A stretch of DNA of 20,000 bases from Psammoneis japonica (taxonomy: Eukaryota): contig QPGO01000199.1 of NCBI GenBank assembly GCA_008632985.1, forward strand, positions 113,957 to 133,956, read 5' to 3'. Under the pieces are notes generated by a model, which saw only the letters and a list, made by a program, of their open reading frames with translations, was not told the origin of the DNA and did not search any database. Shown here in pieces: positions 2,117 through 18,675 of the stretch (position 1 is its first letter; every line of letters starts with the position of its first letter). Made by a program: the position numbers and the translations under genes.

Positions 2117-3260
2117 TTATTGTGCTTCTCCTACGATCACATCATCTTCTTCTTCGATTATATGTGCTCTCATTGCGTCGTCAAAGAATATGCTGACGGC
2201 AAGATCTTTTGACACGTGTCTTTGTTAATAGCTCTCGAGCCAGCCAATGAGGAGGGCTGGGTTCCAACGGGTGCAACATGATATTACGATCCAAAGGATC
2301 GCCCGGAACAACTGCTCAATGGTCAAAAGCAGAATACACCATGGCCTGTCCCTGTGTAAAGCTTCGAATTTAAGTCTCTAGTCCAAAGCAATCAAGGACG
2401 GGAATGAAGCCTTTGACGACATGAAGTGTCGATCCCGCCATTGGTTTGTCTTGCACGACGTGTCCTCTTCGTTTGGTCAGGAGTGGCTGAATAGCGTCCA
2501 CGATTTCACCGGGGCATTGGATTTGCAATCTGTATGGGCTCCATAAGTCGCGGAGTTGCAGTAAGAAGTAACGAATGAACGGTGCGCCTTGAGGTCGGGA
2601 TCATCTGACCACCGCCACGATGAATAGGTTTATCTGCCAAGACTGCGTCTAGAATCTTGATTTTGGTACCTCGGACTGGTTCTTCACACAAAGGACCTTC
2701 CCGTGTTGCCCACTGGAAGCCTTGAACAATGCTGGATCGATACGTGCTCAGCAATGTCTTGTCTACCTCACTCGGCAGCGTATCGTCCATCAGAATGTTG
2801 GTACCGTGAGTGGGCGACGCGCCAAACGCCCATACGGAACGAGAAGAAAGCAAATCCCAATCGTACTGCTTTTGAAAGAATCGCCCGAGCTGAAAGAAAC
2901 GACCAGACACAAGTAGTGTGAGTTGAGTCAAGTAGACAAATCTAATGATCCGCGCAAGGCGCTTACCTTCCTGTTTTCCCAATTCAAATTCACTTTTCCC
3001 GCCTCGATTTTTTCAGCAAGGCCGTCGTCAAGAGGCTCCGCAATAAAGGTGAGCTTACTTCGCTTATTTGCAGTCTGAAGAACACAAAGCGGCGAGTTTG
3101 AGAACTACTGAAATAGGAACACGTGAAACAATTGACACTACTGTACTCGTTTCAACCACAGTCTCGCGGAATCCAACGACAGGGTCGGCGACTTTGACTT
3201 CAATATCCGAGTACACATGGCGAAGATCGTGCATGACACAGTCGATCGTCGTCCCGGCAA
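2117..3260 (-). pseudogene. EFTUD2: 5'-truncated, frameshifted copy of U5 snRNP 116 kDa GTPase (Snu114/EFTUD2), C-terminal part
   Basis: Recognisable motifs: [140 protein letters not shown]. Intact GTAAGC...TTCAG intron at 2966-2890. Frameshift at ~2533, in-frame TAA at 2372-2370, a deletion/frameshift at ~2213 removing RRKGL, and the natural stop at 2119-2117. No GTPase domain upstream. Confidence 0.9.
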
Positions 3261-6200
3261 GGTGCCATCTATTTGTAGACTTGCGAGTAACGATGGCGTG
3301 GTTGGGATGGACCAGCTTCGACGGTATTGCGGATAGTTGTTGGGGATTCACGCCCGGCACCAGCTTTCCGAGCTCGTCTGTAAGTAGGATATGATTATAC
3401 ATGTACAGTCAATGTTTTCCAGAGTCTCGGAAGCCCTTCCAGTGACCCTATACACTAGCAGCGCATTAATGGCGGCACTCTTTCATGCATAAATTGTCGG
3501 TGAAAGTGCCGAGCGCTTCGAATGTGAGGGCTGTGGATCAACGCCTCATGCAGATACCAATAAGCCACAACGAATTATAATAAGGACTGAAAACCTGGAT
3601 CGTGACGAGAGATAGCCGAATCCGTGAGTGAGTGAGTACATTTCTTTTTAAAAAAAAATAGAGAGAGCCATTTTGTAGCAAACGCAAGAACAACGGTAAT
3701 TCTCCAAGAAAGACAAATCCATTGCAGGACAACAACGAAAAGACACACGCGCGTTTCCATACCACTACTTGGAACTTACGAGATGCAATGGATGTGAAAA
3801 ATCAACGGTTCATAGATCACTTCTTGATGATGATTCAGTGTCATTGGATGTGTTTGTCACATTGTCCTTGTATTTGGGCAATGCAATACAAAAGAGAAAT
3901 AGGTCCGAAGTTGGAAGGATGAAAGTAATGAACACAACTGATTGACACAACGTGGCTTCATCCCAATTCAAAGCAAACGGCTTAAGCTCAGCAATCCAAA
4001 AACGCCATGGGAACTCCATTCACTCTAGCAGAGTTTTCGGCGTTTGTCTCTTAAGCTTCAAAACGAAATATTTGTCAAACGAACGCAATCTCGTCTGTAG
4101 GTTTGTGGCTTCTTTCATCCCTCCGGTCCTCCGTGGTGTTTGACTCGGTAAAGGATGTCCGCTGTTGAACGTGAGCTGTGATTGGAATGTTCCAGCGACT
4201 AATGGCCACTAGCTAGAGAGCGCTTCAACCTGCGCTTCAGCTTGGTCGGTGAAAGACGTGCGCGGCATATTCCCTCATTCTCATTCTTTGTGACTTTGGT
4301 GTTGCTGGTAGATGGCACTGCAGCTGTTCCGCCGTGGAATAAGCTGCAAGACAGAACAGCATGATGATGCTTTGTTCCACTGTGGTCGACGCATCAAGAT
4401 TGCACACATCATCAAAGATTTGAAACGCGCGAAAGATCCGCAATCCGCATAACGCGTTGAAGAGTGTTCATCCTCCTGCTGAAGATTCAAACATGACTCT
4501 GCCTCCGACTGGTGTTCTATGCACTGCCCATCCTAAAGGACTTCTTGAGGATGTGCCAGCTTGTGGCCAACAGGACACTTCCCCTTCCGGCAACACTCAC
4601 GGATGCGGGAAAGCTGTTGTGCTTCCTGCTGCATCTGTGACCTGTCCCATGCATTCTCATGGATTTAAGGCATCCAAGCTGGGCCCAGTTGCTGGGTCCA
4701 GTGCATGTGACACTGATGCTGCTGTTGTGTCTCATGTCACAGGTGCGCTCGCTGTGGACACTCGGATGGATCCTACGGATGCTAGTTCCTTGACTGTCAA
4801 GTCCACTGTGTCTGTCATGGAATCTGTTGGCAAGCCATCTGCAGTTGTTGACACTGGATCCCTCGAACTTCCCACCGAATCGGTGGCACTTCCTGCTGAA
4901 GTCCAATCCTGCCTGCTCGAGACCCCAAAGTTTTTTGTTTCTGGCCATTTTGTTGTTCCACACAAAGATGGCCATGTTCGCCCCAGTTGTGGACCATCCT
5001 CTGTTGTCAAGGTTGCACCCGAGTTGCTTGCCACCCACACGCCGCCGTCGTCTGTTGCTCATGGACGCTGCCAGTGCTTTGTTGGTTGTCAAGTTGATTC
5101 AAAATTGGATTTTTGGTTCGGCCGTCGTTGGTTTCGGATGTGCGATGCTGCCGTTCCTTCTCTTGTCCGATCAAGACCAGCGGAAGCGGGGCAACCCTGA
5201 AAGAGGGCCACCGGGTCTCATTGCCTCCCGCCATTTCATCTCTTTCCTCTGTTGTCAGGGCTGTTGTCGCATCCATTTGTGCTTTTCACGGTGCTCCGGA
5301 CCTGTCCACCATTGCCGATGATGATCCCACATTTTTTGATCAGGGAAGGGATTCCCATGGTGCAGAGGAAACATGTCAGGCCATTGAGAACTCAATCTTC
5401 CGCCAAGACACCTTGCTTGACGATCACTTTTTGAACGCCGTGCGATGCTCACCTCCGATGCGTCACTGTTCTTCCAACGTTGAGCAACTTCATGATGTGT
5501 TCTGTTTCTCTAACATGTTTTTCAAGGGCGACACAAAGTGTGGTGGCAGCATTGGTTTGCCAGGTGGGATGCCATTGCTTCATTTTCAACGCATCACTTG
5601 CCATGGTGGATTTCCAATTTTTGGCCCCATCTCTTCCGATGATCTTTGGCAACAGGATGACTCGCCAGAGTGTCCCGTTGCAGTCGATTGTTTGTGGATT
5701 GACAAAATTCTTCTCTGGTGCACGACTCAATTTGTCCAAAAGATTCATTGGGAACTGCCTTTGACATTTTTTGTCAAAGACCGACGCGCTGAGCATGAGA
5801 TGGATGTTTCATTCCCGACATGCTCGTCCCTTGATGGGATGTCATCATTGATTGTTGTCATGTTTGCGGACCAAGTCTTGGCCATTTCTTTTGGTGCTCT
5901 TCTTTGTTCTGCTGTTCTGGCCCTCTCTTTTTGTTTGGATCGTCTCTTTCTTGTTGAGCATTGCATTGCTCATCAGGGGAGGGTGACAGACATCCGAGAT
6001 GGGGAGCACACTCCCTTGTGTCGGACAGACCAGCATGGACAGCATGGAGAGATCCGATGTTCTCTCCTTTGCTCACTTTCTTTCTGATCCAGCACATGAT
6101 CATCATCTGTCCTAGACATCCGTTAGATTGTCCCGATGCCACCAGTCCATAAATTGCAAATGTTCCATGAGACTCTTTGGTTCCTGGTGCCTCTGAAAAA

Positions 6201-6939
6201 TCCACAAAAGATGCCATTTGTGGTCATTTTCATGTTCAAAACTTCTCTGTCAACAAAGAGACGGCATTCCACATCTCCTGCTTGCACCTCTTCCTCCATT
6301 TCTTTTCCTCATTTGGGTGGCCTTGGTGGAGACGTTTGCTGTGTTGCTGCTTCTTGACAGTGGCAACATTGAGACACACAAATCCTTTTGATCAGACCTC
6401 GCCCAGAGAATCAGAGCAAATGATTCACAAAAGGGTTGACAGCAGGCAGCAGGACAGTCACAATGACCAAACAAATGTTTGCAAGACACAAGATGCATCA
6501 TGCACCAGGGTTTCATGAATTTTTGTCAACTGCTTCTTTCTTTTGGCTGGACTTGGACGGGTGTGGCACGTTGCCACTTTGTGATGATGGTTTGCACTGC
6601 TTTGATCCACTTGATTTGGATGAGACAGAAGAAGCCCAACTTTTGCAACCTCCGTGCATTCAGGAAACCAATGCCGCCCCCCATGAAGCTTCATTCCATC
6701 AAGAATGAGTTGGCTGTGATGACAAAGATGTCTCTCCCACCAGCTGCACAAGTCTTTTTTTCTGTCTTGGGCCAAGCATGCCAAGGAGAGTGATTGCAAG
6801 TGCAAGTCTTTGTCCTGCTCTGCCACTTTGCATTGCCATCAACAAAACAGCTGGCTGCTCTTCTCCGCTCAACAAGCAAATGACAGAAGCCATGAAATCC
6901 AACAAATGAAGTCAAACCAATGAGCATGGTCAGGGAGCA

Positions 6940-8530
6940 AAATCTTTGTCTTGGGCAGCAGCAACCCATTGCATGAATCCACTGGAGACACAAAGATTCC
7001 CAGCTGCACAAGGTGTGCAAGCCTGAGGCCCACAGATGTGGCAAAAGAGGTGCGCAGTTGTCTTGGGATGATGCTGGGATGTGTCTTGGGCAGCAGCAGC
7101 CCCTTGCATGACTCAACAAACAGGAAGGAGTTGCACATCTGTGCAAGTCGTGCTGGAAGCATGAGGCCCACAGATGTGGCAGAGGAGGTGTGCAGCTGTC
7201 TTGGGGTGGCCTTGGACAACTCCAACAGGTCCCAAGGGACGCAACAGCAACAATGATTGGATGGCAAAGGCCTTGTCTTGTGTCAACACAGCCCCTTGTT
7301 GCTCTGACATGTGACTGGCTTGCACACCCAGCCACCCCACCCACAGAGACAAGGGAGCTTCCTGTGCTGACAAGAACAATGGCTGGGAAGCAAAGGCCTT
7401 GTCTTGTGTCAATGCACTCCCTTGTCTTTCTGACATGACTGGGTTTGGCCCAGCTCTCCACCTGCAGAGAACACCAGGGAACCATCTGTGTGACAGAGCA
7501 AGTGCACAAACATCCAAGATGACTCCATTGTGTTCCAGAGGACACAACAACAACAACGGCTGGGGAGCAAAGGCCTTGTCTTTTGTCAACACAGCACCTT
7601 GTCTTGCTGAGATGACTGGGCTCCATTGCCCAGTCACCCAACCTGCAGAGAACAGGGAACAATCCAGCATGTGACAGCACAAGTGCCAAGTTGCCTTGGG
7701 ACAGCTTTTGGTGACTCCATTGGGTCCCAAGAGACACAACAGCAACAATGTTTGGGGAGCAAAGGCCTTGTCTTGTGTCAACACAGCACCTTGCCTCTCT
7801 GACATGACTTGGTTTGGCCCAGTCATCACCGCCACACCTGCAGAGACAAGTGAGCCACCTGTGCAACAGTGCAAGTGCTCAGTTGTCTTGGGATGGCTTT
7901 TGATCACTCCATTGGATTCCAGGGGAGCCAACAACAAGAACAACTGGGAAGCAAAGGCCTTGTCTTGTGTCAATGCAGCACCTTCTTGATCTGACAGGAC
8001 TGGGTTTGGCCCACCCAACCAAGCTGGAAAGACAAGGGAGCCATCTGTGTGACAGCGCAAGCACTCAGTTGTCTCAAGGCAGGTGCAAGAAGCTCCATTG
8101 GGAGACACCAGTGGAGGCAGCAACAACAATGGTTGAGAACAGAAAGCCTTGTCTTGGGCTGACACAGCTCCTTTTCTCTCCCATGTGACTGGCTTGTTTT
8201 TTGGCCCACTGGCCACCACAGCACCTGCCTGCAGAGACAAGAGAACCATCTGCACAACCATGGGATGGCATTTCAACAATGAGCAGGAAGCAAAGGCCTT
8301 GTCTTGTGTCAATGCACCCCCTTGTCCCTCTGACATGTCTGGCTTTCACCCAGCTGCTGCACCTGCAAAGACAAGCACTGACAATGGCTGGGAAGGGAGC
8401 GCCTTGTCTTGGGCCAATGCAGCTCCTTTTGTCTCTCTTGATGTGACTGGTTTGCTTTTTGGCCTGGCTGCTGGCTGGCACACCTGCCTGCAGAGACAAG
8501 GGAGCCATCTGCACGACAGTGCAAGTGCTC
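6940..8530. repeat. Degenerate tandem repeat array (units 105-192 bp, core GCAAAGGCCTTGTCTTGTGTCAA), probably a former coding repeat
   Basis: The TGTCTT anchor occurs at 6947, 7082, 7274, 7400, 7577, 7769, 7961, 8150, 8300 and 8405. All spacings are multiples of 3, and ORF 7113..8336(-) repeats LTQDKAFA in a single frame. Confidence 0.85.
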
Positions 8531-8937
8531 AGTTGTTTGAGGTGAAATGATTGGAGTGGGGGTCATGGGCCACAGCATTCTTGGTGGCAGGTGGATGGTG
8601 GATTTGTTGTTGACAGAGGTGGCAGCAGTGGCAGGTTGTCAGCCAGAGTTCTGCAACAGCTCCAGTGTGGCAGAGCCTTCATTTGTCTTGGGGCTCCTTG
8701 TGCTGCACACTTGTGGCTGAGGTGGAGCACCATGACCAAGACTGCTGCCAGCACTGGAATGGTTGGCAGCACACGGATGGCTGCCGCTGCCTCCACAAAG
8801 AGTTTTTTCACATTTTTTTTTTGCGGCCTTGTTGCAACACATCAAAAAGAAAATGTGGTTGTGAGGGCAAGCAGATTGTGAAGATTGAAGCATCGGAACA
8901 TTGAAAAAAGATGGTGTGTGGCAGCAAAACTGTAAAA

Positions 8938-9045
8938 AATTCCATCTCAACAAGAGCACACATGCAAAACCTCATCCAAGTCATCTCAAATCATTTGAAC
9001 CTTCAGAGCTGAATGTGAGCATGAAATTTAAACAAAGTTGTCACT
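8938..9045 (+). repeat. Diverged direct repeat, copy 1 (partner at 16130-16259)
   Basis: TTCCATCT.AACAA...CACAC.TGCAAA...TCAT.CAAGTCAT...ACCTT.AGAG...TGTGAGCATG.AATTT...GTCACT is shared with 16130-16259. Confidence 0.75.
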
Positions 9046-9050
9046 TGGGA

Positions 9051-9269
9051 CGAACAAATCCCGATGCAGTCGCATGAGACAATGTCACACCTTGAGCCTG
9101 AGAGTGGCAGTGACAAACAAAGCAAACCCTGTTCCGATTGTGTTGTGTGAGATTGTGCGGGAAAGAACAACAGCCAAACCGTGCGCGCCAGCCCCGGACC
9201 AGGGGCTGACCGCCCCATCCAGATTTGCTTGGTGGCAGTCACAATGCCGATTCGTCTAAACGCAGAACA
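9051..9269 (-). repeat. 3' LTR of the copia element (outer ~44 bp missing)
   Basis: 9051-9229 aligns without gaps to 15936-16114. On the minus strand it starts TGTTC at 9269, immediately after the purine tract GAGAGGA (putative PPT, 9276-9270). Confidence 0.85.
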
Positions 9270-11984
9270 TCCTCTCAAAGAGAGGCAAACACAAAAACCC
9301 AAATTCAAACCACCAGCTGTGCTGGCTTGGGAGGCCAAGACACGTGGGCGTGAACCGCAGGTGCCTGGCCTTGGCGTTGGGACGCCACCAAAAAATGCAA
9401 GAACAAAGCTTCCAGCACCGCTCGCCTGTCACCAACTTCGTAAACAAATCCGCCAAGTTCGTGTCTGTGTCCTCCTTTCCAAAGCGAATGACACCAGCTG
9501 CTGCCGCCTCACAAACCACATGACAGTTAACGGCATTGTGCTTCTTGTGCAGTGCAGATTCCGGGACACTGACATTCTTCACCATGCCGTGGTCATTGCA
9601 AAATACATTGGCAGGGCCTTCGATCAGTGCTCCAAACATGCGAAGCTTGCAATGCAAAGCAACAGTCAACTCCTTGCAAATTCGCATCGCACAACCAACT
9701 CGCCACCAAACATTGCTGACTCCACTGTGTTCTGCCGCTTGCCAAACCAAATGATCAGAGCATTGTTCACAAATGTCAAGATCCCGCTGTGTGACCTGCG
9801 AGCAATGACATTCCCCGCATGGTCAGCATCAACAAATCCAGACACATTTGCTGGGTTGCCACGGGGCTTGGGCATCCGTGGCAGCAACTCCTCCTCAACG
9901 TCCCCACAGAACTCCATCCAATCTGCAGCAGAATTGAAAACAGATTCATCAATCTCAGGCATCTTCGGATCAGTGACCAACATTCAAATGCTTCTTCATG
10001 TGCGCAAACACGTGATGCAATGCTTCGAGGTGCCCTTTCCTTGGGTTGGCCTGGCACTGAGAGAGAACAGAAACTTCATGCAAGATGTCGACATGCCCCA
10101 ATTCAATTGCCCAGCGACAAATGCCAATCAGCTGCAAATGTCCATCCACCGAATTGGGTCCCAACTCATCTGTCACGTCCAATTCCGGCTTGCACTTGGA
10201 AGGCAATGGATCCTTGGCATTGCTCTTCAAGACTGCGCCATCTCCATCCTCTTCCAACAGACCTTCCACCGTCTTGATCGCCGACTTGATGTGTGATTTC
10301 GGTGAGCTTGCCCAAATGGTGCGCCCATCTTCGGTCTGAACCTTCTTGACATTGGCTCCAAGGCACAACGCCAGTTCTCCTTCGCTCCCAGGTTTGACAG
10401 CAAACGATTCACCTGTGCTCTTGACGATGGACTTTCCTTGATGGGAAATGATTAGAATGTCATCAACACACACGAGTGGCATTTCACAATGCTCGTGCCC
10501 ATCATCGCGAGTTGCTGCACAAATGCACATGTTGGGATCCACCTTCGCAGATTCAAAACCCACACCCCACAAAACCGTTGGTCCTGAACTCTTCAAACCA
10601 TGCAGCGCTCGGGTCACAATTGGCACCTTGCCTTGATGCTCCCCGCATTCCTTGCCACCTTCGAACCAAATCTTTTCCGCGCACGGGGCATTCAAACACG
10701 CGTTCTCCAGGTCGACAGCCATGGCATCCACTCCATTCAAAGCTGCCAATGGAAATCCTGACCACACGCTGTCCCTCGAAATGACACTTGAATGTGTGAT
10801 CTATGATGGTGTCTCTGCAGTGTGACCTCCTGCAACAAATCTGGCCTTCCCAGTGAAATCCATCTTGACGTCAAACACCAAGTGGCAGCTGATCTCCTGA
10901 TGACCTCACAAAGTTGTGCTCTTGCCTTCCCGGACAACTTGAGGGGTTTCAGCTTCGTGTTCGCGCCACGCGACCTTGCGCGCGACCTTGACCTCATTCA
11001 TCTCCTTGTTGGTTGCACGAGCCCAACAGTCTGTCCCCGTTTCCTGGTCAATCTTCAAAGCATCTTCCGCAGACTTGGGCAAATGCGTGCCGAACTTGTG
11101 GGCAGTGTGCCAACATTTCTTCTTAACCTTTGAAATGATCCGATTCCGCTTGCGCAATGCGTGCGCAACCCACCAAGCAAAAGCTGGCTCTTCGGTCAAC
11201 CTGTTCGCAACAGCATGCTCAGCAACTTCAATTGGGTTAGATTCCTTTAGATCCTTGAGCTTCACCCATGACAAGCCACCATCTTTCCATGTGACCAGTG
11301 ACTTCCATCCTTTCGCAGTTGTCTTCTTGTGTTCCTTCCCGTCAGCCACATGGACTGTCCCTTCCTGGGTCGGCATCGCTTTGCCAGTCTTCTCATGGTC
11401 CTGCATCTCCTGCAAGATAGAATGTTGGTTGCCTTCGCTGTCAACTTGAGCAAACATGTTCTCCGCGACTGCATTGGCAGCACACTTGTCCATGGCACCA
11501 TCAGTGCATTCAATCTCACATTCGCGGGTGTCAAACAATGGACTCTGATGTCGGGTCCCAATCGGTCGCCCATCCTGGCCCGTGCTCGTTTTGCTGCGAC
11601 TCCTTGTTGCTCAGCATTGGTTCCAACATCAAACACAAGCTCCATTCCCAGATGTTGGTCGATGGCCTCTTCGTTGTTGTCCTCGGGTCGTTCTCCTGGC
11701 AACAACATGTCCCCGCATTCCTCATCGGTTGGTGTCACACCACCTTCATGCTCCACTCCGGGGTTGCCGTCGATCGCGACATCATCCAAAACAAATGCCG
11801 GTGCTGCTTCATCACCTTGCAAAACGAAGTTCGTGTCATCCAATTGTGTCTCCAGTTGTTTGTTGAATTTGTCGACTTTCACACGAATGTCCGGTTGCAC
11901 CATGTCAGCCTGTGTTGCGTGCTCGACTGAAGTCTTCGAAACTGTCTTCCCGGATTCCGTGACAATCCAATGGCACATGTCTGA

Positions 11985-12424
11985 TGCAACACACAGCTGC
12001 TGATAAGAGTCAATGTATCACGGCGACGTGTTGCAGCATTTAAATGTCACAAAGGGCGTGACAAAAATGACCTTTTGTCTGCATGCATGCTGCATTGTGA
12101 ATTCATGGCGGAGTGGTTCGTCTCGCAACCATCAGGCAGGAGGCCAGGGGTTCGAAACCCTGAGTGGGAGTTGTCTGCAGCAACGTTGATCACTGTCGAA
12201 TGCGCAAAACTCTGTGCAGTTCTGTTTGTTCCTTCGTGCGCACCCACACTGTTCCGCCAAAACCGTGCAGTGTCAGCGCACGTGAGCGCAGGTCGCGTGA
12301 TGCATGGGGAGGAGTGCAATGTGCAGCTGCTGATGAGAGTCAATGTGTCACGGCGACGTGTTGCAGCATTTAAATGTCACAAAGGGCGTGACAAAAACAA
12401 CCTTTTGTCTGCATGCATGCTGCG
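11985..12424 (+). mobile_element. TRIM-like non-autonomous mini LTR element inserted in the copia integrase
   Basis: 110-bp direct repeats at 11985-12094 and 12315-12424 (TG...CA/CG) around a 220-bp interior. A PPT-like GGGGAGGAG (12306-12314) abuts the right repeat. The 4-bp TSD is CTGA (11981-11984) / CCGA (12425-12428). Removing the element restores in-frame GISHKVGS-DMCHWIVTESG. Confidence 0.85.
12106..12162 (+). promoter_or_regulatory. tRNA-like Pol III internal promoter (A box + B box) within the TRIM
   Basis: A box TGGCGGAGTGG (12106-12116) and B box GGTTCGAAACC (12149-12159), 43 nt apart start to start. The B box sits in a T-arm-like hairpin, GGGG-TTCGAAA-CCCT. Confidence 0.55.
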
Positions 12425-14094
12425 CCGATCCGACTTTGTGGGAAATGCCTGGCCACCGTCCAAGTCTCCTCGGGTCATCTGTTGCATTCGGTTTGTCGGG
12501 CCTGTCCCACCACCAGACCATGTCACAGAAACCAAAATCCAAGTGCTCGCCCATTTCGGGTGTCTGACCAGTCACCTCTTCACACCCAGTCCTCTTGTCG
12601 CGACCTCTTGCCATGCGAGGTGCCAGCTCCGATTCACACACAAGACCAAAATCCCACAGTCGTTTCGGCACCTTTTTCTTTGTCATGCGCAGATGCCAGC
12701 ACTTGGCTGGGAACCCAATCTCTCTTTCTGCAGCATGACTCTGATTCTTGCGACCTTGTTCCGTCGTCCTGAGTTGGGTCCTCATTCGACGTGCATGCTT
12801 GACAAAGTCGGCATTTCGTCCGGCAAACTCTCCAGCTCCATCCGACATGAGATGTTCTGGCACACCCACGTCATCTGCAAAATCAACAAGAGACAGACCT
12901 GCCTCCGACCTTGCAGTCATTGGCACAACCTTTGCGAATTTGCCCTGAGTGCAAACATTGGCACAAGTGTTGCCGAGCAAAGACTTCACCTTAGATGTCA
13001 ACGTGTCCACAAACCATGTCCCTTTTAGTCGCTTCCGGTGCAAGTCCAGGTGGTCAACCCTGACTCTCCTTGACATTGGTTGAGTCGCCGTCCACACGCC
13101 ATGTTGTGTGGTTGCATTGATGGTGTCCTCAGCCGTTTCCAAGCCGACTTTCCACTTTCGTGCTAGCTCTTCAGCGTCGATCTTGGAGTGACGGTCCTTG
13201 CTGCGCAGCTCCTTGATGGATCTTGCCTTCTCATCCACGTCAGACCTGTGCGGGCAAGCCACGTTGACTGAACTGATGAGCCTGTCACAGAAGGTTTGAA
13301 GGTGACAAACTGGAGACAATTGGGTTGGTTCAGTTTCAACTTCGCTTGAGACTTGGCCCTGTTGCTCATCATTTCTGAAATTTGTTCCTGTTGCATGCCA
13401 GATGTCATTGATCGGATGGCNACACATTTCAGATTGCTCCCGTGTGCGCTGTGGCAAACCCATGTCGACTTCTGTTGGTTCCCATGCATCTCCTGTTGGC
13501 AGCATGACTGGTGAGTTCTTCTCCTCCCAATCCATTGGAACGCGAGACTTGAAAGATGCGATTGTCCCTGTGGAATTGAAAGGGATGAAAGCCTCATCAG
13601 CTTCGACTCCAAACCCATTTCGAGCATCGCAGGGGTTGTCATGTGCAGGCATGTTGCATGCTCGCAATTGATTGGGATTCAACAGTGAATGCTGCATGTC
13701 AGTGCCAAACCATGACATTTGGTCTCCGACCAGCAAATGCTCGCAACTCGTCTCCGGATCCGTCCATGCCGTGCAACAACGCGCCACAGGGACCTGTTCA
13801 ATCGGCTCACAAGAATCTAGAAACGGGTGTGCTTCACAGATTTTGTTTGACAATTCCATGAGTTTCCAGTTGGCTCCAGCACAACAAGCATCCGTGTGGG
13901 TGTCACATTCATTCCTTGCCATGAAACCGGGTGTCGTCATGTTCGTTGTCGCAGTTGACACGCCTTTTCGTCGTCTTTTCTTGCAAATGAAACATTGGGT
14001 GGGGTTCAGTTAACAACACAATGAGCAACATGAACACAAATGACATGTGTGCCAGATGCGCCAATGCTCCCGTAGCTGAAACCACCCCAATCAG

Positions 14095-15494
14095 TCAAGC
14101 ATGGCCTTGACAGGCTCCTCGACCGAAAGCCCGCCCATTCCTGCCACCGCGATCACGGTCAGCTCCGCGACCGCGGCCGCCACCTTGACCTTGTTGCTGC
14201 TCTTGGCCTTGACGATCTTGGACCTGAGCTTCGGCTGCCTGCCCATTGTCTCCGTCGCATCCACCTCTTCCTGCAGCACCTCCGCGTCCACCGCGACCAT
14301 GCATCCTTTCATGAGCTTGAAAGACGCAATTGAGGCCTCTGTCAAAGCGCCACCTTTCCCATTCCTGGTCGGCAAAGTTCCTCCCACAACCGCCGCGATG
14401 GAAACCACGGCCACCGCTGCCACCTCGGCCAACCTGAGAGATCTTGCGTTTCGCACAACGCTGGGCTTCCAACTGAGCACCTGCATGTGAACGAGAGACT
14501 TCGGATGAGAAACAAGCACACGCCCCCGCGAAGTCGCGAGGGTGCTGGCCGCAGCCGCCACAAGACAAGTGTCATCTGACTTGACACCCTTTTGAAGGAT
14601 CTCAACCTTCTGCCGAGCAGATGCACGTTCATCTGGGATCTCATCCAAGGTGGCAAAGGCACTGGCAAGTTTCTCCGTGAACTTCTCAAACGCAAGTGCT
14701 GCTTCCTTCTTGTGGAACAGTGTTTCGACATTGGCCTTCGCCAGATGAACCCGCTTGCTCAATTCTCCTTCTCCGTTGCAATGATTGACCCATGCCCAGA
14801 ATGCTGCGTGCCCATTTTCAGTTGCATTGTGCGGTTCAATCCAAGCCCATCCAGCCGCATCAATCAAACATTCCTTTGGCACACGGCAAACACGACGATT
14901 GTCCACATCAAATGCATCTCCGGCGAGTGGCAGTTGATGCATGCGTTGTTCCTGAGTGTCCACAAACACAGCCGGTGCAGGCATCCTCATCATGACACAT
15001 TTCAATGGTTCCTTCAGCACACCAAGTTTCTGCGCCAATGGATTCAAGAAGGCATCCTCGCACACATCAAAATCATCCGTCTTGAATTTGGCAAGGTCGC
15101 TGACCATTGCAGTTGACTCCGTAAATTCCTTTTCAATGCGCCTGCCATCCCTGGCTGCCGCCACAGCTGCATTGTTAAAGTTCCCCGCGACCAGCGGTTG
15201 ACTCCTTTTCGTCAAATCCCTTGACCACCATGCCAACGCCTGCAAGTTCCTAATTTGAATCATTCCCAGAATCACGTGACCATCGGCTGCCGTGCGATGA
15301 GCTGCCCTCTGGGCTAAGTCCTCCACATCGTGATCAGTTTCCATGACAGCAACATTCTCAAGAGCAGCAAACCCTCCACAGAAAACAAGCCTCGCCCCAG
15401 CATTCTGGTCAACCACACCGCAAACCTGCAAAACTGCATCTGCATCAGCCGCTGTGGCCAAAGCCGCAAGTGCCACTGCAGGTGCCACTGCCAT
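14095..15494 (-). pseudogene. gag: Copia gag-like ORF, frameshifted near 14560
   Basis: Long ORF between the 5' LTR and pol with CoDi-gag-like segments (NLQALAWW, CEDAFLN, DNRRVCRVPKECL, GWAWIEP...NGHAAF, HCNGEGELSKR) and a Gly/Arg-rich tail in ORF 14095..14568. The likely ATG is at 15494. Confidence 0.8.
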
Positions 15495-15891
15495 CCCACA
15501 AAAAGAAATTAGAGGCAAAAACCCACACAATGGGTTGCGATCAAGTGTGAGTGCGCATGGTGCAGGAGGCCACACCGGCCGGTGTTGTGATGATGGGTTC
15601 ACTCAGCCAACCGACTTCGGGGTGATCAGTCCCGTGTCGTTTTTGTCGTGAGCACACGCTCGGGCATGCCACCCAATGCCGCAGTCACCCCACACCCGTC
15701 ACCAACATGGAGACATTGACTGTCGTGCAAGCATTTTCTGTTGCAAGCTGTTTCCTTGGTTGATGTGTGCGACACAGATCATGCGCTGCACGCGACAACC
15801 TCCTTTCGACGCCACGCGCACAACTCAGCACATTTTCTACAGCTGCTCGTTCCATGCACACATTCACAACAAACAACCGTTCACGACGAGT

Positions 15892-16114
15892 TGTTCCCTT
15901 GTCCTTTTCCATCAGCGTCAATGGCTCTGACAAAGCGAACAAATCCCGATGCAGTCGTGTGAGATGACATTGTGCCTCAAGCCTGAGAGCAGCAGTGACA
16001 AACAAAGCAAACCCTGTTCCGATTGCATCGTGTGAGATTGTGTGGGAAAGAACAACAGCCAAACTGTGCGCGTCAGCCCCGGACCAGGGACTGACCACCC
16101 CATCCAGATTTGCT
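15892..16114 (-). repeat. 5' LTR of the copia element (outer ~40 bp missing or diverged)
   Basis: Matches 9051-9229. On the minus strand it plausibly ends GAACA at 15892, the inverted complement of the TGTTC start of the other LTR, implying an LTR of about 263 bp. Confidence 0.8.
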
Positions 16115-16129
16115 CGAAAAAACAGCGCC

Positions 16130-16259
16130 AATTTCCATCTGAACAAAAAAAACACACTTGCAAAGCCCCGATGGCTTGACGATTCATTCAAGTCATTTTA
16201 AGCCATTCAAACCTTTAGAGTCAAATGTGTGAGCATGGAATTTTAAAAAAATGGTCACT
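16130..16259 (+). repeat. Diverged direct repeat, copy 2 (partner at 8938-9045)
   Basis: Visual alignment to 8938-9045 with one internal indel of roughly 15-20 bp. Confidence 0.75.
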
Positions 16260-18675
16260 CAAAAAGTGACACCAACAGGAGTCAACAGGCAGACAGGCCC
16301 GAGTTGTGACAAAACAGCAGCTGTCATTGCCTCACAAGACACAAAATGCAAAACACAGGGCCAGCCCAACATTGTGACAATGACAGCAGCAAGGGAAGGC
16401 AACAGAAGAGGACAAGGGGGAGCAGAGCAATGTGGGAAGTGAGACACAGCAAATGAGTTGGTGAGTGAATGGAGCCATGGCAACAATGTGATCAACCAAG
16501 ACTTTTGTCAAATCTTTCAAAACAGACTTGTTGACACAAGGCAACACAGTGCAAGTGGAGCCAGAACAGAAGAAAGTCATGCAGGGGCTGCACAAAGGCA
16601 AGCAGAAATGCCATTTGCAACAAGCCTGTTCTGCAGAAAACATGCACAATGTGCTGATCTGTTGCACACTGTTTTCTTGTCTTTGCAGTCATGATGGCTG
16701 TGATGAGATGGCATGACAAGCATGAAAAGCACAAGGTCAGGACATGGAACAAATGAACAATGCAGACAAAGGAGAGCAAATGCAAGGAAAGATGCAATGA
16801 GCCAAACATCAAACAAGAGAATGACTGTGGCACGGAAGCCATGGCAGGAGAAAGAACAACACAAGGGGGGGGGGAGAGCAGGAAGCATTTTGGCATGTTT
16901 GCTGCAGAAAGGTCAAAAGCAGTTGGCACAAATTGCATTTAAATTGTGCACAGCCAATGAACAAGCATCTCAATGAGATGAGCCAAATGTTGTTGTTGTG
17001 AGAAATGAGCAATGTCAGAAAATGGACACAATTGAAACCTTGTCAAGAGCCAAAAATGCCATGTTGCCAGCTTCATCAATTGTTGTTTCCCACTTGGAAT
17101 CTTTGTTTGACAATTGGACATGAAATGAACAACTGCAAAAACATTGTGGTTGCAAGCCAATCAAGATGTCATGCACCAGTTGCCCACAAGAGCCAATCCA
17201 TTGAGTGCATTTTCCTGTTGAGTGCATTTCCTGCTTTGCATGAGGGAGGAGGGGGTGATGATTGAAATGGCTTGATTCACAGTTGGTCATCACTTGCTGC
17301 ACTCTCATTCAGCACACAGATGAATTCTCAATGAAAGCAATGATGTTTTCCAGACTTGGTGGTTGCTCCTCCATGGCAGCAAACAGGACAAAGTCTTGAC
17401 ACAAAGAAAGGCATCTTTTCAAGCTGCAACTTGTTTGAAATCCCAGGAGGTGCAAGCAACACAACAGCTTCAGGTGGGAAATGCAAGTGGAAGCATGTTG
17501 CCAGTGCCTTTGCACACTTGCATGGCAACAGCGCTGCCAAAGCCACAAACAAATGCCTGTTGAAAAGAGTCTGATCAGACTGGCACCTTTTTGGACTTGG
17601 GGTGATCTGACACCAAACAAGCACATGATCCAACACTGGTGACTTGGCACCTTGTTTTGCCAGGGCTGTTTGCTCTTGTTTTCAAGGAGCAACTTGCACC
17701 CTGTGCATCTTCTTCCAAGTCATCTGCTGTCTCCTCTTCCAAGTCTTCTGTTGTCTGACATTTGACCATGAACCTTGCTGCAGCCAATCAATTGGTTGTT
17801 GAAAAAAGAATTGTGAGATGCGACAACTGCACGATGTTTCGTAGAAACCGCAACGACATTTGGAACAAACTGTGGCATTGGACATGGCAGTGCTGTTCAA
17901 ATGACTTGCTGGCAGTCGCTCAATCGTCTTTGTCAACACCAGCCAGAGACAACAAATGCTTGTCGCAAAATGAAAGAGCTGTCATTGTGCGCTGCAATGT
18001 GACAATTGCAGGACATGTGCAACCTTGGTTGTCTGTCTCTCCACCCAGAGCAACAAAAAGAAGATTGCTTGGCATTGCAGTCAGACCCCCACACATTCAT
18101 TCATCTTGCTTCTTGACGTGTTTGAAGGCAGAACCAAAGATGTTCTTGCGCCAACCCCTGAGTTGACTGGCGGCTTCTGATTCGCCATTTTCACCTCCAC
18201 TTTCGGCGCATTCATTCTAAGTAGATTCCACGTACAAAGATACGGCGCGCATGGTGGATGCTGAAAAGTTGGACGTGCTCTCTTCACGAGATTTGTGCAC
18301 TGTACGTACCGTACTTTACGCACATGTCACAGTCATTTGTCAACGTCATTTGAGACATTTTTGTTAAATTGCGTACGTCATCGAGATTTGAAACTCAACA
18401 TCTAACATCTCTGCTCTCTCTTCTCACAAAATGGATCGCTGAAGATCGCTCCTCTTTATGTACCGTAGGGCCTACCATACAATAATTTCTCCATAGAGAG
18501 CATTGGCAACCACCTATTGTATTGCAACCTTGGGCTATTGCTCTTGATAACACACGCTACTCAATTGTATCTTGGCTGGTTGCGAGTCACAACATTGCAT
18601 AGCATTCGTTCAGCCACTGGGAAAGTGCTGTCGATCGGATATCGGAGCATCGAAGCTTTCCATCCGCTATTAACT

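Follow-up and report, generated by a model that had tools for sequence, protein, structure and literature searches.

The two LTRs of a retrotransposon are expected to be identical at insertion and, from then on, to be struck by mutation independently. In the window, which is the whole 20,000-nucleotide stretch of DNA that was analysed, a Copia-like element carries two LTRs that differ by nothing but transitions, most of them forming pairs in which CA faces TG. The question raised by this locus is which process leaves such a pattern, on which ancestral letters it acted, and when. Very probably, the repeat island around the element underwent near-saturating, TpA-directed A:T to G:C hypermutation of chromosomal DNA. 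The LTR copies would then differ mostly because this process, turning TA into CA or TG, struck each repeat separately after insertion.

Judged by its sequence, the element at 9051-16114 is a Copia-type LTR retrotransposon on the minus strand, lying within a 13.4-kb repeat island. Its 3' LTR (9051-9229) and 5' LTR (15936-16114), both on the minus strand, are direct repeats of 179 nt, and no further LTR copy was found in the window, a transition-tolerant scan included. Directly inside the 5' LTR, from 15935 inwards, is a PBS-like stretch, which, apart from one TA to TG change, we take to resemble the PBS motif for initiator tRNA. The reverse transcriptase (RT; 9970-10800, minus strand) is of the RVT_2 type and is inactivated. 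A search at E≤0.001 gave 129 homologues, by which it was recognised; the best share 61-62% identity with it, and many have a precomputed PF07727 label. Its own Pfam score is 12.2 bits (E 0.13), below the cut-off of 31.6. In its Y-x-DD motif, the conserved Tyr reads Cys (CVDD). Upstream of the RT, as in Copia gene order, an integrase-like region (12348-14009, minus strand) forms a 553-aa frame with 65 homologues at E≤1e-10. None of these homologues bears a Pfam label, and a D,D..E-like pattern is visible by eye. The single N of the window, at 13421, is inside this region. An open frame at 14091-15602 on the minus strand has the position expected of gag, and it has no Pfam match.

No clean 5-nt target-site duplication was found at the element ends (TGGGA versus CGAAA, where two of five letters are identical and the three differences are all transitions). 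TG...CA termini are absent, as the LTR on the element strand starts AGCA and ends TTCG, and no run of purines adjoins 9230 to mark a polypurine tract. All three features may have been erased by later mutation. The left host flank (X, 8926-9050) and the right host flank (X', 16119-16264) are homologous to each other, with 94 matches, 22 transitions, 9 transversions, and 21 gap positions. On the strength of this alignment, X and X' are units of a tandem duplication that predates the element, which inserted into it.

The LTRs align over 179 nt with no gaps and 22 differences (87.7% identity). All 22 differences are transitions, and 16 of them form eight adjacent CA/TG swaps, located in the left LTR at 9073-74, 9080-81, 9083-84, 9086-87, 9088-89, 9093-94, 9105-06, and 9141-42. 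Seven swaps are clustered within 9073-9106 (partners 15958-15991), and the eighth pairs 9141-42 with 16026-27. The left LTR reads CA at four sites and TG at four, the right LTR is likewise divided, and the two outcomes are intermingled inside each copy, a few bases apart. Neither copy contains a TA. The first-pass annotation had described this all-transition alignment with its eight swaps, and the description is exact down to the strings it quoted. When 22 transitions were placed randomly on the left copy 200,000 times, the maximum number of swaps was five, and six or more occurred in none of the trials. A control tandem pair outside of the TA-free domain (18676/18779, 103 nt) has 13 differences, comprising 10 transversions and no swaps. 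LTR divergence is 12.3% with the swaps and 3.4% without them, so the earlier warning that LTR dating would overestimate the age of the element is arithmetically correct. The proposal that the swap cluster marks a destroyed TATA box is not supported. Between the cluster and the PBS-side end of the LTR there are only 29-39 nt, which fits LTR geometry poorly because almost no space is left for R and U5.

Two ancestral states could give rise to such CA/TG swaps. One is CpG, where methylated C would have been deaminated on opposite strands in the two LTRs as part of the ordinary decay of a silenced transposon. Such decay is active at this locus: four of the six single LTR differences (9144, 9158, 9180, and 9212; the other two, 9188 and 9205, are elsewhere) set CG against TG or CA, and CG o/e, which is 0.74 in the element, drops to 0.20-0.27 in older parts of the domain. 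Nevertheless, seven CpGs are intact in both LTRs, as the annotation had noted in general terms, and one of them directly adjoins the first swap (GTCG at 9070-9072). Counted as CpGs, the LTR sites would be 7 kept, 4 half-decayed, and 8 doubly decayed, which a single rate does not fit (goodness-of-fit p 0.002); it gives 0.29 discordant doubles where 8 are seen (Poisson 9e-10). A model with two rate classes, such as a densely methylated, hyper-decaying cluster, would fit the LTR counts. An ancestral CpG also requires at least 19 CpGs in a 179-nt ancestral LTR, against a CG o/e of 0.74 in the element interior.

The other state is TA, and a nested repeat bears on the choice. A repeat search found 1.33 copies of a 330-nt unit at 11985-12423, in which 109-nt repeats (11985-12093 and 12315-12423, pair D6) flank a stretch of 221 nt in which there are tRNA-like A and B boxes. 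The insert in pol is exactly one 330-nt unit of in-frame extra DNA. The 109-nt repeats have 8 base differences, all of the TA type, made up of three CA/TG swaps and two TA-versus-TG sites. One TA and four CpGs are kept in both copies, and no CpG differs. The intermediates are TA-versus-TG, never CG-versus-TG, which speaks against an ancestral CpG; a single-rate TpA model fits the pair (p 0.43), whereas a single-rate CpG model fails (p 0.003). In sequencing run X1, summed word depth over the 330-nt unit exceeds that of neighbouring bins by a factor of about 30-100, and one contig links 12423 back to 12123.

The conserved residues of the element also argue against CpG. In the RT alignment (42 of the 120 listed homologues, 197 columns at ≥60% consensus), Tyr is kept in none of 14 conserved columns, which now read His (6), Cys (6), Phe (1), and Ala (1); Gly is kept in 17 of 17 columns and Lys in 11 of 12. 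In the integrase-like alignment (56 of 65 homologues, 343 columns), none of eight Tyr columns is kept (Cys 5, His 2, Val 1). Across both regions, not one of the 22 conserved Tyr columns has kept its Tyr, and 19 now read His (8) or Cys (11); of 47 Arg columns, by contrast, only 11 have lost Arg and 36 keep it. Seven of the lost Arg columns read His, Cys, or Trp, a point in favour of CpG decay. Other genomic copies were compared through the best-supported 40 of 957 variant rows of run X1, a set that does not include the swap sites. At 8 sites they show TA against CA or TG in this copy; 9 sites show CG, and 4 the opposite swap. The sites with CG again favour CpG decay. On balance, the sequence evidence supports ancestral TA as a better fit to the swaps than ancestral CG, with the state at the eight sites reconstructed, and CpG decay is an improbable source of them. 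The annotation had held that TA was resolved independently in each LTR after insertion, a view now supported indirectly by the complete loss of Tyr, the intermediates in the 109-nt pair, and the failure of the CpG model.

The loss of TA extends well beyond the LTRs. A TpA-depleted, CpA/TpG-enriched domain spans about 4800-18217 (13.4 kb), with a sharp right edge at 18217/18218 and a left edge graded over about 4340-4800. The hypermutation may also reach some hundreds of bases into adjacent sequence. The domain holds 37 TA, and its TA o/e is 0.05 compared to 0.61-0.64 in the flanks. CA (1464 counts) and TG (1336 counts) have o/e values of 1.65 and 1.70 compared to 1.09-1.21 in the flanks, and CG o/e is 0.52 compared to 1.04-1.15. 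Within the element, CA and TG sum to 1.56+1.65 against about 2.3 in the flanks, an excess about equal to the TA and CG deficits together. The TA-free state reaches 4 kb and 2 kb past the element into unrelated repeats. It also covers tandem repeats and the nested 330-nt unit, and an array of ~190-nt repeats at 6900-8600 is without both TA and CG. The survival of a TpA is about nine times likelier in the Y-TA-R context. Outside of the domain, the exons of the host U5 snRNP 116-kDa (Snu114) gene (2370-3408, minus strand) have normal dinucleotide content. All named protist matches to Snu114 are diatoms, at 79-83% identity, and by this comparison the host gene looks diatom-like and not chlorarachniophyte-like.

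The spectrum of the process, its saturation, its use of both strands, its regional limits, and its timing after duplication or insertion are shown by these data. TpA is its own reverse complement, so the strand that is hit would decide the outcome: a hit on one strand would give TpG, and a hit on the other CpA. Each TpA site would then be a coin flip and, once converted, no longer a target. With independent coin flips in the two LTRs, about half of the ancestral TpA sites would read CA in one and TG in the other, which would account for the eight swaps. A slower CpG decay, presumably deamination of 5mC in silenced repeats, would account for the four single differences at CpG. The most likely reaction is deamination of adenine to inosine, carried out by an ADAT2/TadA-like enzyme as has been proposed in Bigelowiella natans; a lesion directed at thymine would leave an identical pattern. 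Targeting could occur via chromatin or small RNA, and the role could be genome defence.

An alternative to mutation of chromosomal DNA is that the editing preceded or accompanied integration, acting on RNA (ADAR-like) or on cDNA, or that the LTRs come from two differently mutated elements that recombined. The absence of a clean target-site duplication, of canonical termini, and of a visible polypurine tract means that the LTRs could stem from two recombined copies. Moreover, ADAR-type enzymes favour a 5' U according to work cited in the accessible text of bioRxiv 10.64898/2026.01.13.699255, and APOBEC acts on LTR elements during reverse transcription according to that of PMC4866542. Nevertheless, edits in RNA would be common to both LTRs since both are copied from the same templates, and editing of a single-stranded intermediate would give one polarity, where each LTR here has 4 CA and 4 TG. 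With an RT that has lost all 14 conserved Tyr, including that of Y-x-DD, the element could hardly have transposed. The TA-free state also spans non-element DNA on both sides; together with the interleaving, this argues against editing of RNA or single-stranded cDNA. For recombined elements, X and X' as units of one local duplication favour a single insertion site. Editing before integration, or recombination, is thus very unlikely.

The letters themselves could also be wrong. Modified bases can cause systematic miscalls, and a modified T (or A) in TpA could be misread while the true DNA is still TA. Run X1, the sole run containing the stretch, may be the assembly's own source data and is therefore not independent proof of the letters, and the window has one N. 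Strand-specific misreading, however, would yield all-CA and all-TG read classes and not the mixture seen here. Of the 31-letter words that were sampled, a fraction of 0.67 is present in the run, with word depths of about 60-86 per contig, and mixed words are probably among them; an exact 287-nt piece covers 16067-16353. Furthermore, TA is readable in this family, since some TAs are left and TA also occurs in other copies. Such an artefact is the least likely of the readings considered. Hypermutation of chromosomal DNA, which the annotation had proposed, is supported by the interleaving of CA and TG, the TA-free state past the element, and the precedent of B. natans.

Among known systems, adenosine deaminases (ADAR, which hyper-edits dsRNA of repeats, and ADAT2/TadA-type enzymes, for which editing of DNA is reported, as far as the sources consulted extend) convert A to I, which is read as G, next to a 5' U or T neighbour. 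In the tRNA substrates of ADAT/TadA, the edited A34 is preceded by U33. The change here is fixed in genomic DNA and found on both strands, and an enzyme of this type is a candidate. APOBEC is likewise a host-driven hypermutator that kills LTR elements, but it converts C to U on minus-strand cDNA, giving G to A with one polarity, before integration and as a rule in both LTRs (PMC4866542, accessible text). Decay of 5mC at CpG also takes a self-complementary YpR step to TG or CA and yields the same type of swap between old duplicates; it acts on CG and is much slower here, where 7 of 11 visible LTR CpGs are kept in both copies.

Fungal RIP, too, hypermutates repeated or mobile chromosomal DNA by transitions, regionally and close to saturation; it inactivates elements and inflates divergence-based ages, and its possible leakage into adjacent DNA resembles the graded left edge. 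RIP creates TpA (CpA to TpA, C to T), while the process here destroys it (A to G or T to C). RIP itself was rejected as the cause, since TpA is nearly absent and CpA in excess in the domain, the opposite of the expected TpA excess. We tentatively suggest, at somewhat less than even confidence, that diatom-like stramenopiles defend their genomes in a RIP-like way with the opposite chemistry: a saturating, domain-wide and TpA-specific adenine deamination, or an equivalent lesion, of silenced transposon and satellite islands, with a wider sequence preference that tends to spare TpA in the Y-TA-R context. No report of TpA to CpA/TpG hypermutation in a diatom was found in the literature searched.

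Such hypermutation has been described so far in only one other alga, B. natans. Of 302 new mutations in its mutation-accumulation lines, 231 were located in two regions of integrated viral DNA, and almost all of these were TpA to TpG or CpA (bioRxiv 10.64898/2026.01.13.699255). The same preprint reports 124 TpA-poor, CpA+TpG-rich clusters in the genome and an enrichment of reverse-transcriptase and DDE Pfams among TpA-poor genes; LTRs, retrotransposons, diatoms, and wider sequence context go unmentioned in its accessible text. As far as that text extends, both systems share A:T to G:C changes only at TpA on either strand, a bounded region where TpA is low and CpA+TpG is high (with normal flanks here), and mobile or foreign DNA as the target, here a Copia-like element, tandem arrays, and the 330-nt unit. 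The B. natans target is a giant-virus or virophage insert, and a single-copy region is hit there, whereas the target here is a retrotransposon and satellite island. Depletion here is near saturation (TA o/e 0.05), compared to a Rho of 0.45 in the B. natans NCLDV region. In B. natans mutations were seen in real time, while chromosomal action here is deduced from the LTR and 109-nt pairs and the extension past the element. B. natans is a chlorarachniophyte, and the host gene here appears diatom-like. If diatom-like stramenopiles do have such a defence, every LTR-based dating in such genomes would be distorted, and TpA hypermutation would, together with B. natans, be an old and widespread system of the SAR clade, not the oddity of a single alga.

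The Copia-like element at 9051-16114 lies on the minus strand, with its 3' LTR at 9051-9229 and its 5' LTR at 15936-16114. The two LTRs align over 179 nt without gaps, and all 22 differences between them are transitions. Eight CA<->TG swaps, in which adjacent bases read CA in one copy and TG in the other, account for 16 of the 22. In left-copy coordinates the swaps are found at 9073-74, 9080-81, 9083-84, 9086-87, 9088-89, 9093-94, 9105-06 and 9141-42; the left LTR reads CA at four of them and TG at the other four. Four of the six single differences are CG versus TG or CA (9144, 9158, 9180 and 9212), and two are of another type (9188 and 9205). Seven CpGs are kept by both LTRs, and neither LTR contains a TA. 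When 22 transitions were placed at random on the left copy, the maximum over 200,000 trials was five swaps. A control 103-nt tandem pair outside the TA-poor domain (18676/18779) has 13 differences, 10 of them transversions, and no swaps. The eight-swap pattern between the LTRs is not due to chance. The first-pass annotation had described all-transition differences with eight swaps and CpGs that persist in both copies, and the counts bear out both statements. No third copy of the LTR turned up when the window was scanned with transitions tolerated, and one unchanged 31-nt stretch of the LTR had no match among JGI metagenome contigs.

The minus-strand frames of the element are ordered as an open frame in the gag position (14091-15602), an integrase-like frame of 553 codons (12348-14009) and a reverse transcriptase (RT; 9970-10800). 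None of the 65 homologues of the integrase-like frame is Pfam-labelled, and the frame includes the sole ambiguous base of the window, a single N at 13421. A search with the RT gave 129 homologues at E<=0.001, of which the closest share 61-62% identity; a precomputed PF07727 (RVT_2) label is attached to many of them. The element RT itself scores 12.2 bits against RVT_2 (E 0.13), the sole relevant match at E<=10, and a Pfam search of seven frames gave no match at E<=0.01. Just inside the right LTR is a candidate primer-binding site, similar to the motif for the initiator tRNA and carrying one TA->TG change. Inspection of the LTR ends showed no TG...CA termini, and a polypurine tract was not seen in the element. 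A clean 5-nt target duplication was not found at the insertion, where TGGGA and CGAAA match at 2/5 bases and differ by transitions at the other three. Host sequence borders the element at 8926-9050 and 16119-16264, and these two flanks form homologous direct repeats with gaps and about 75% identity (94 matched positions, 22 transitions, 9 transversions, 21 gap positions). This homology fits the pattern expected if the element had inserted into an older tandem duplicate.

Within pol, 11985-12423 is composed of 1.33 in-frame copies of a 330-nt unit. The unit joins 109 nt of element sequence to a 221-nt piece that contains A and B boxes of tRNA-like type; ARAGORN and Rfam (gathering thresholds) found nothing, the tRNA-like piece included. 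In X1, a sequencing run compared with the window, the word depth summed across 11849-12610 reaches about 30-100 times the depth of the bins next to it, and one contig links 12423 back to 12123. From this depth and this join, the unit seems to be an abundant tandem array elsewhere.

CA<->TG swaps are predicted by a TA ancestor and a CG ancestor alike, so discriminating evidence was sought. Conserved columns of the RT were drawn from an alignment of 42 of the 120 listed homologues (197 columns in which the consensus was 60% or more), and those of the integrase-like region from 56 of 65 homologues (343 columns). None of the 14 conserved RT tyrosines is kept (now His 6, Cys 6, Phe 1 and Ala 1), and among those lost is the tyrosine of Y-x-DD, a motif that reads CVDD in the element. 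Conserved Gly is kept at 17/17 RT columns and Lys at 11/12. All eight conserved tyrosines of the integrase-like region are also lost (now Cys 5, His 2 and Val 1). CpG decay converts Arg to His, Cys or Trp; over the two regions, 36 of the 47 conserved arginines are kept, and seven have become one of these residues. Where a His or Cys of the element departs from the homologues, their consensus residue is Tyr in 19 cases and Arg in five. With Tyr kept at 0/22 columns and Arg at 36/47, TpA loss is complete in the present copy and CpG loss partial.

The 109-nt repeat pair inside the element (11985-12093 and 12315-12423) differs at five sites alone, three of which are CA<->TG swaps and two of which are TA in one copy and TG in the other. 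One TA and four CpGs are common to both copies, and no difference involves a CpG. Judged from this alignment, the TA-versus-TG sites are the intermediates expected from a TA ancestor and not from a CG ancestor. Under a single CpG rate for the LTRs (p about 0.2; seven kept in both, four in one), 0.29 discordant doubles are expected versus the eight counted (Poisson 9e-10). When one CpG rate is fitted to the LTR counts of 7/4/8, the goodness-of-fit p is 0.002, and in the 109-nt pair a single rate gives p 0.003 for CpG and p 0.43 for TpA. Single-rate CpG decay is thus a misfit in both pairs, but CpG decay with two rate classes would fit the LTR counts. CpG decay is also real, because other copies in X1 have CG at nine sites (best 40 of 957 variant rows). 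X1 contains 0.67 of the words sampled from 8801-16400, with 2131 contig pieces at 80% likeness or more, and its 964 variant places comprise 754 transitions and 210 transversions. Variants were compared between copies in the best 40 of 957 rows, all outside the LTRs. Among these 40 rows, other copies have TA at eight sites where the present copy has CA or TG, the opposite swap at four sites (eight rows) and other changes in 15 rows. Copies that are less mutated and retain TA thus exist; as the rows compared all lie outside the LTRs, we infer TA as the ancestral state at the eight swap sites. The origin of the swaps from ancestral TA, as first proposed, is supported indirectly, by the convergence of the Tyr and Arg columns, the intermediates in the 109-nt pair and the LTR counts.

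The LTR pair also bears on when and on what the process acts. Both LTRs of one element are copied from the same templates, and differences between them postdate synthesis. RNA editing was rejected because its edits would be common to both LTRs and because the TA-free state extends past the element. Editing of single-stranded cDNA was rejected as well, since one polarity would be expected, whereas each LTR has four CA and four TG, interleaved within 34 nt. The lost Tyr codons now encode His eight times and Cys 11 times, and an RT without all 14 conserved tyrosines could hardly have made the present copy. Both polarities, a dead RT and TA-free neighbouring repeats argue for a process on chromosomal dsDNA after insertion. 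Such a process would hit chromosomal double-stranded DNA, or both strands in turn, and the mutation would proceed region by region. The first-pass annotation had placed the mutation after integration and on dsDNA, not on RNA or during reverse transcription, and the two polarities within each LTR and the TA-free flanking repeats support this placement. It is unlikely that the swaps come from miscalls at a modified base. X1 may be the data behind the assembly itself, but an artefact would be expected to yield all-CA and all-TG read classes, and CA and TG are interleaved instead.

The TA-poor domain covers ~4800-18217 and has 37 TA over 13.4 kb (counts per 500 nt and per 100 nt), with 15-36 TA per 500 nt in both flanks. 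Observed/expected ratios in the domain are 0.05 for TA, 0.52 for CG, 1.65 for CA and 1.70 for TG, and those of the flanks are 0.61-0.64, 1.04-1.15, 1.13-1.14 and 1.09-1.21, respectively. The whole domain contains 1464 CA and 1336 TG, and within the element the TA deficit plus the CG deficit approximately equals the CA+TG excess. The TA-free state extends over unrelated repeats, 4 kb and 2 kb on either side of the element, and the nested 330-nt unit is also within it. On the right the domain breaks off within a few bases, at 18217/18218, and the final TA-free stretch stops at 18217. The left edge is a gradient of ~0.5 kb (about 4340-4800) with intermediate TA density, which could be leakage of the process into adjoining DNA or older, partly affected sequence. 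The CG ratio is 0.74 in the element (9051-16114) and 0.27 and 0.20 in the older domain parts at 4800-9050 and 16115-18217. This domain-specific CpG loss points to repeat-restricted cytosine methylation beside the TpA process. Because TAA and TAG are gone, stop codons are rare in the domain, and a six-frame count finds 36 frames of at least 100 codons overlapping the 8 kb at 8500-16500.

A tandem array at 6900-8600 (period ~190 nt) has no TA and almost no CG, with CA+TG at ~23% of dinucleotides; its 84-nt copies have 36 CA<->TG swaps, a sum over 21 non-independent pairs. Exons of the U5 snRNP 116-kDa (Snu114) host gene were placed by protein homology at 2370-3408 (minus strand). No exact match to the gene was found; the best homologue is 89% identical, and the named ones are diatoms at 79-83% and one mammalian at 69%. 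Judged by this homology, the window would derive from a diatom or a near relative of diatoms, and not from Bigelowiella natans. The gene lies ~1.4 kb from the graded domain edge and has normal TA and CG content.

The TAs that survive in the domain are in a biased context. Y-TA-R accounts for 25/37 of them versus 53/273 in the flanks (Fisher p 6e-9), and with both strands counted a purine is 3' of the A in 60/74 domain TAs and 240/544 flank TAs. Given this bias, TpA with a purine next on both strands seems to be a poor target. The lost Tyr codons run in the predicted direction, at too few sites to weigh: those with a preceding purine became His (8) or Cys (8), and those with a preceding pyrimidine became Cys (3) and never His.

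LTR divergence is 22/179 (12.3%) with swaps and 6/179 (3.4%) without them, and the two differences outside TpA-type and CpG sites amount to 2/179 (1.1%). These values agree with the earlier caution that LTR dating overestimates the age of the element. The suggestion that the swap cluster marks a destroyed TATA box is unsupported, though not disproved. Read along the element strand, the cluster covers positions 141-150 of the 179-nt LTR and is 29-39 nt away from the end abutting the primer-binding site; with a start site ~30 nt downstream, hardly any R/U5 would remain.

Taken on sequence evidence, the ancestral-TA, post-insertion reading of the LTR swaps is supported. If true, TpA-directed chromosomal hypermutation, so far reported in one preprint on a chlorarachniophyte, would also occur in another algal lineage, one that is distant and ecologically dominant. 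The process would kill retrotransposons outright, as none of the 22 conserved tyrosines survives in its RT and integrase-like regions here. The LTR pair would be a natural experiment on timing after insertion and on the involvement of both strands. LTR-divergence ages in such genomes would be inflated several-fold, mutated elements would be missed by profile searches (Pfam E 0.13 for a clear RT), and stop-poor six-frame ORFs would arise. A deaminase responsible for it would become a concrete search target in diatom genomes.

The kind of phenomenon is already described in one preprint, on Bigelowiella natans. In mutation-accumulation lines of this alga, 231/302 new nuclear mutations fell in integrated giant-virus and virophage regions; 230 of the 231 were A->G or T->C, all 230 on TpA (bioRxiv 10.64898/2026.01.13.699255). 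The B. natans genome has 124 clusters of TpA-poor, CpA+TpG-rich windows, its TpA-poor genes are enriched in reverse-transcriptase and DDE domains, and its authors put forward an ADAT2-like enzyme that would deaminate adenine in DNA (bioRxiv 10.64898/2026.01.13.699255). So far as the available preprint text goes, its spectrum and signature are like those of the domain described here, and that text makes no mention of LTRs, retrotransposons, diatoms or wider sequence context (bioRxiv 10.64898/2026.01.13.699255). A literature search found no report of TpA hypermutation in diatoms. Fungal RIP, rejected as the cause here for its wrong direction, is the nearest functional analogue; its chemistry runs the opposite way, and RIP creates TpA. 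Relative to these systems, what appears to be new is the lineage of the host, the targeting of a retrotransposon and satellites, the nearly saturated state and the bias in sequence context.
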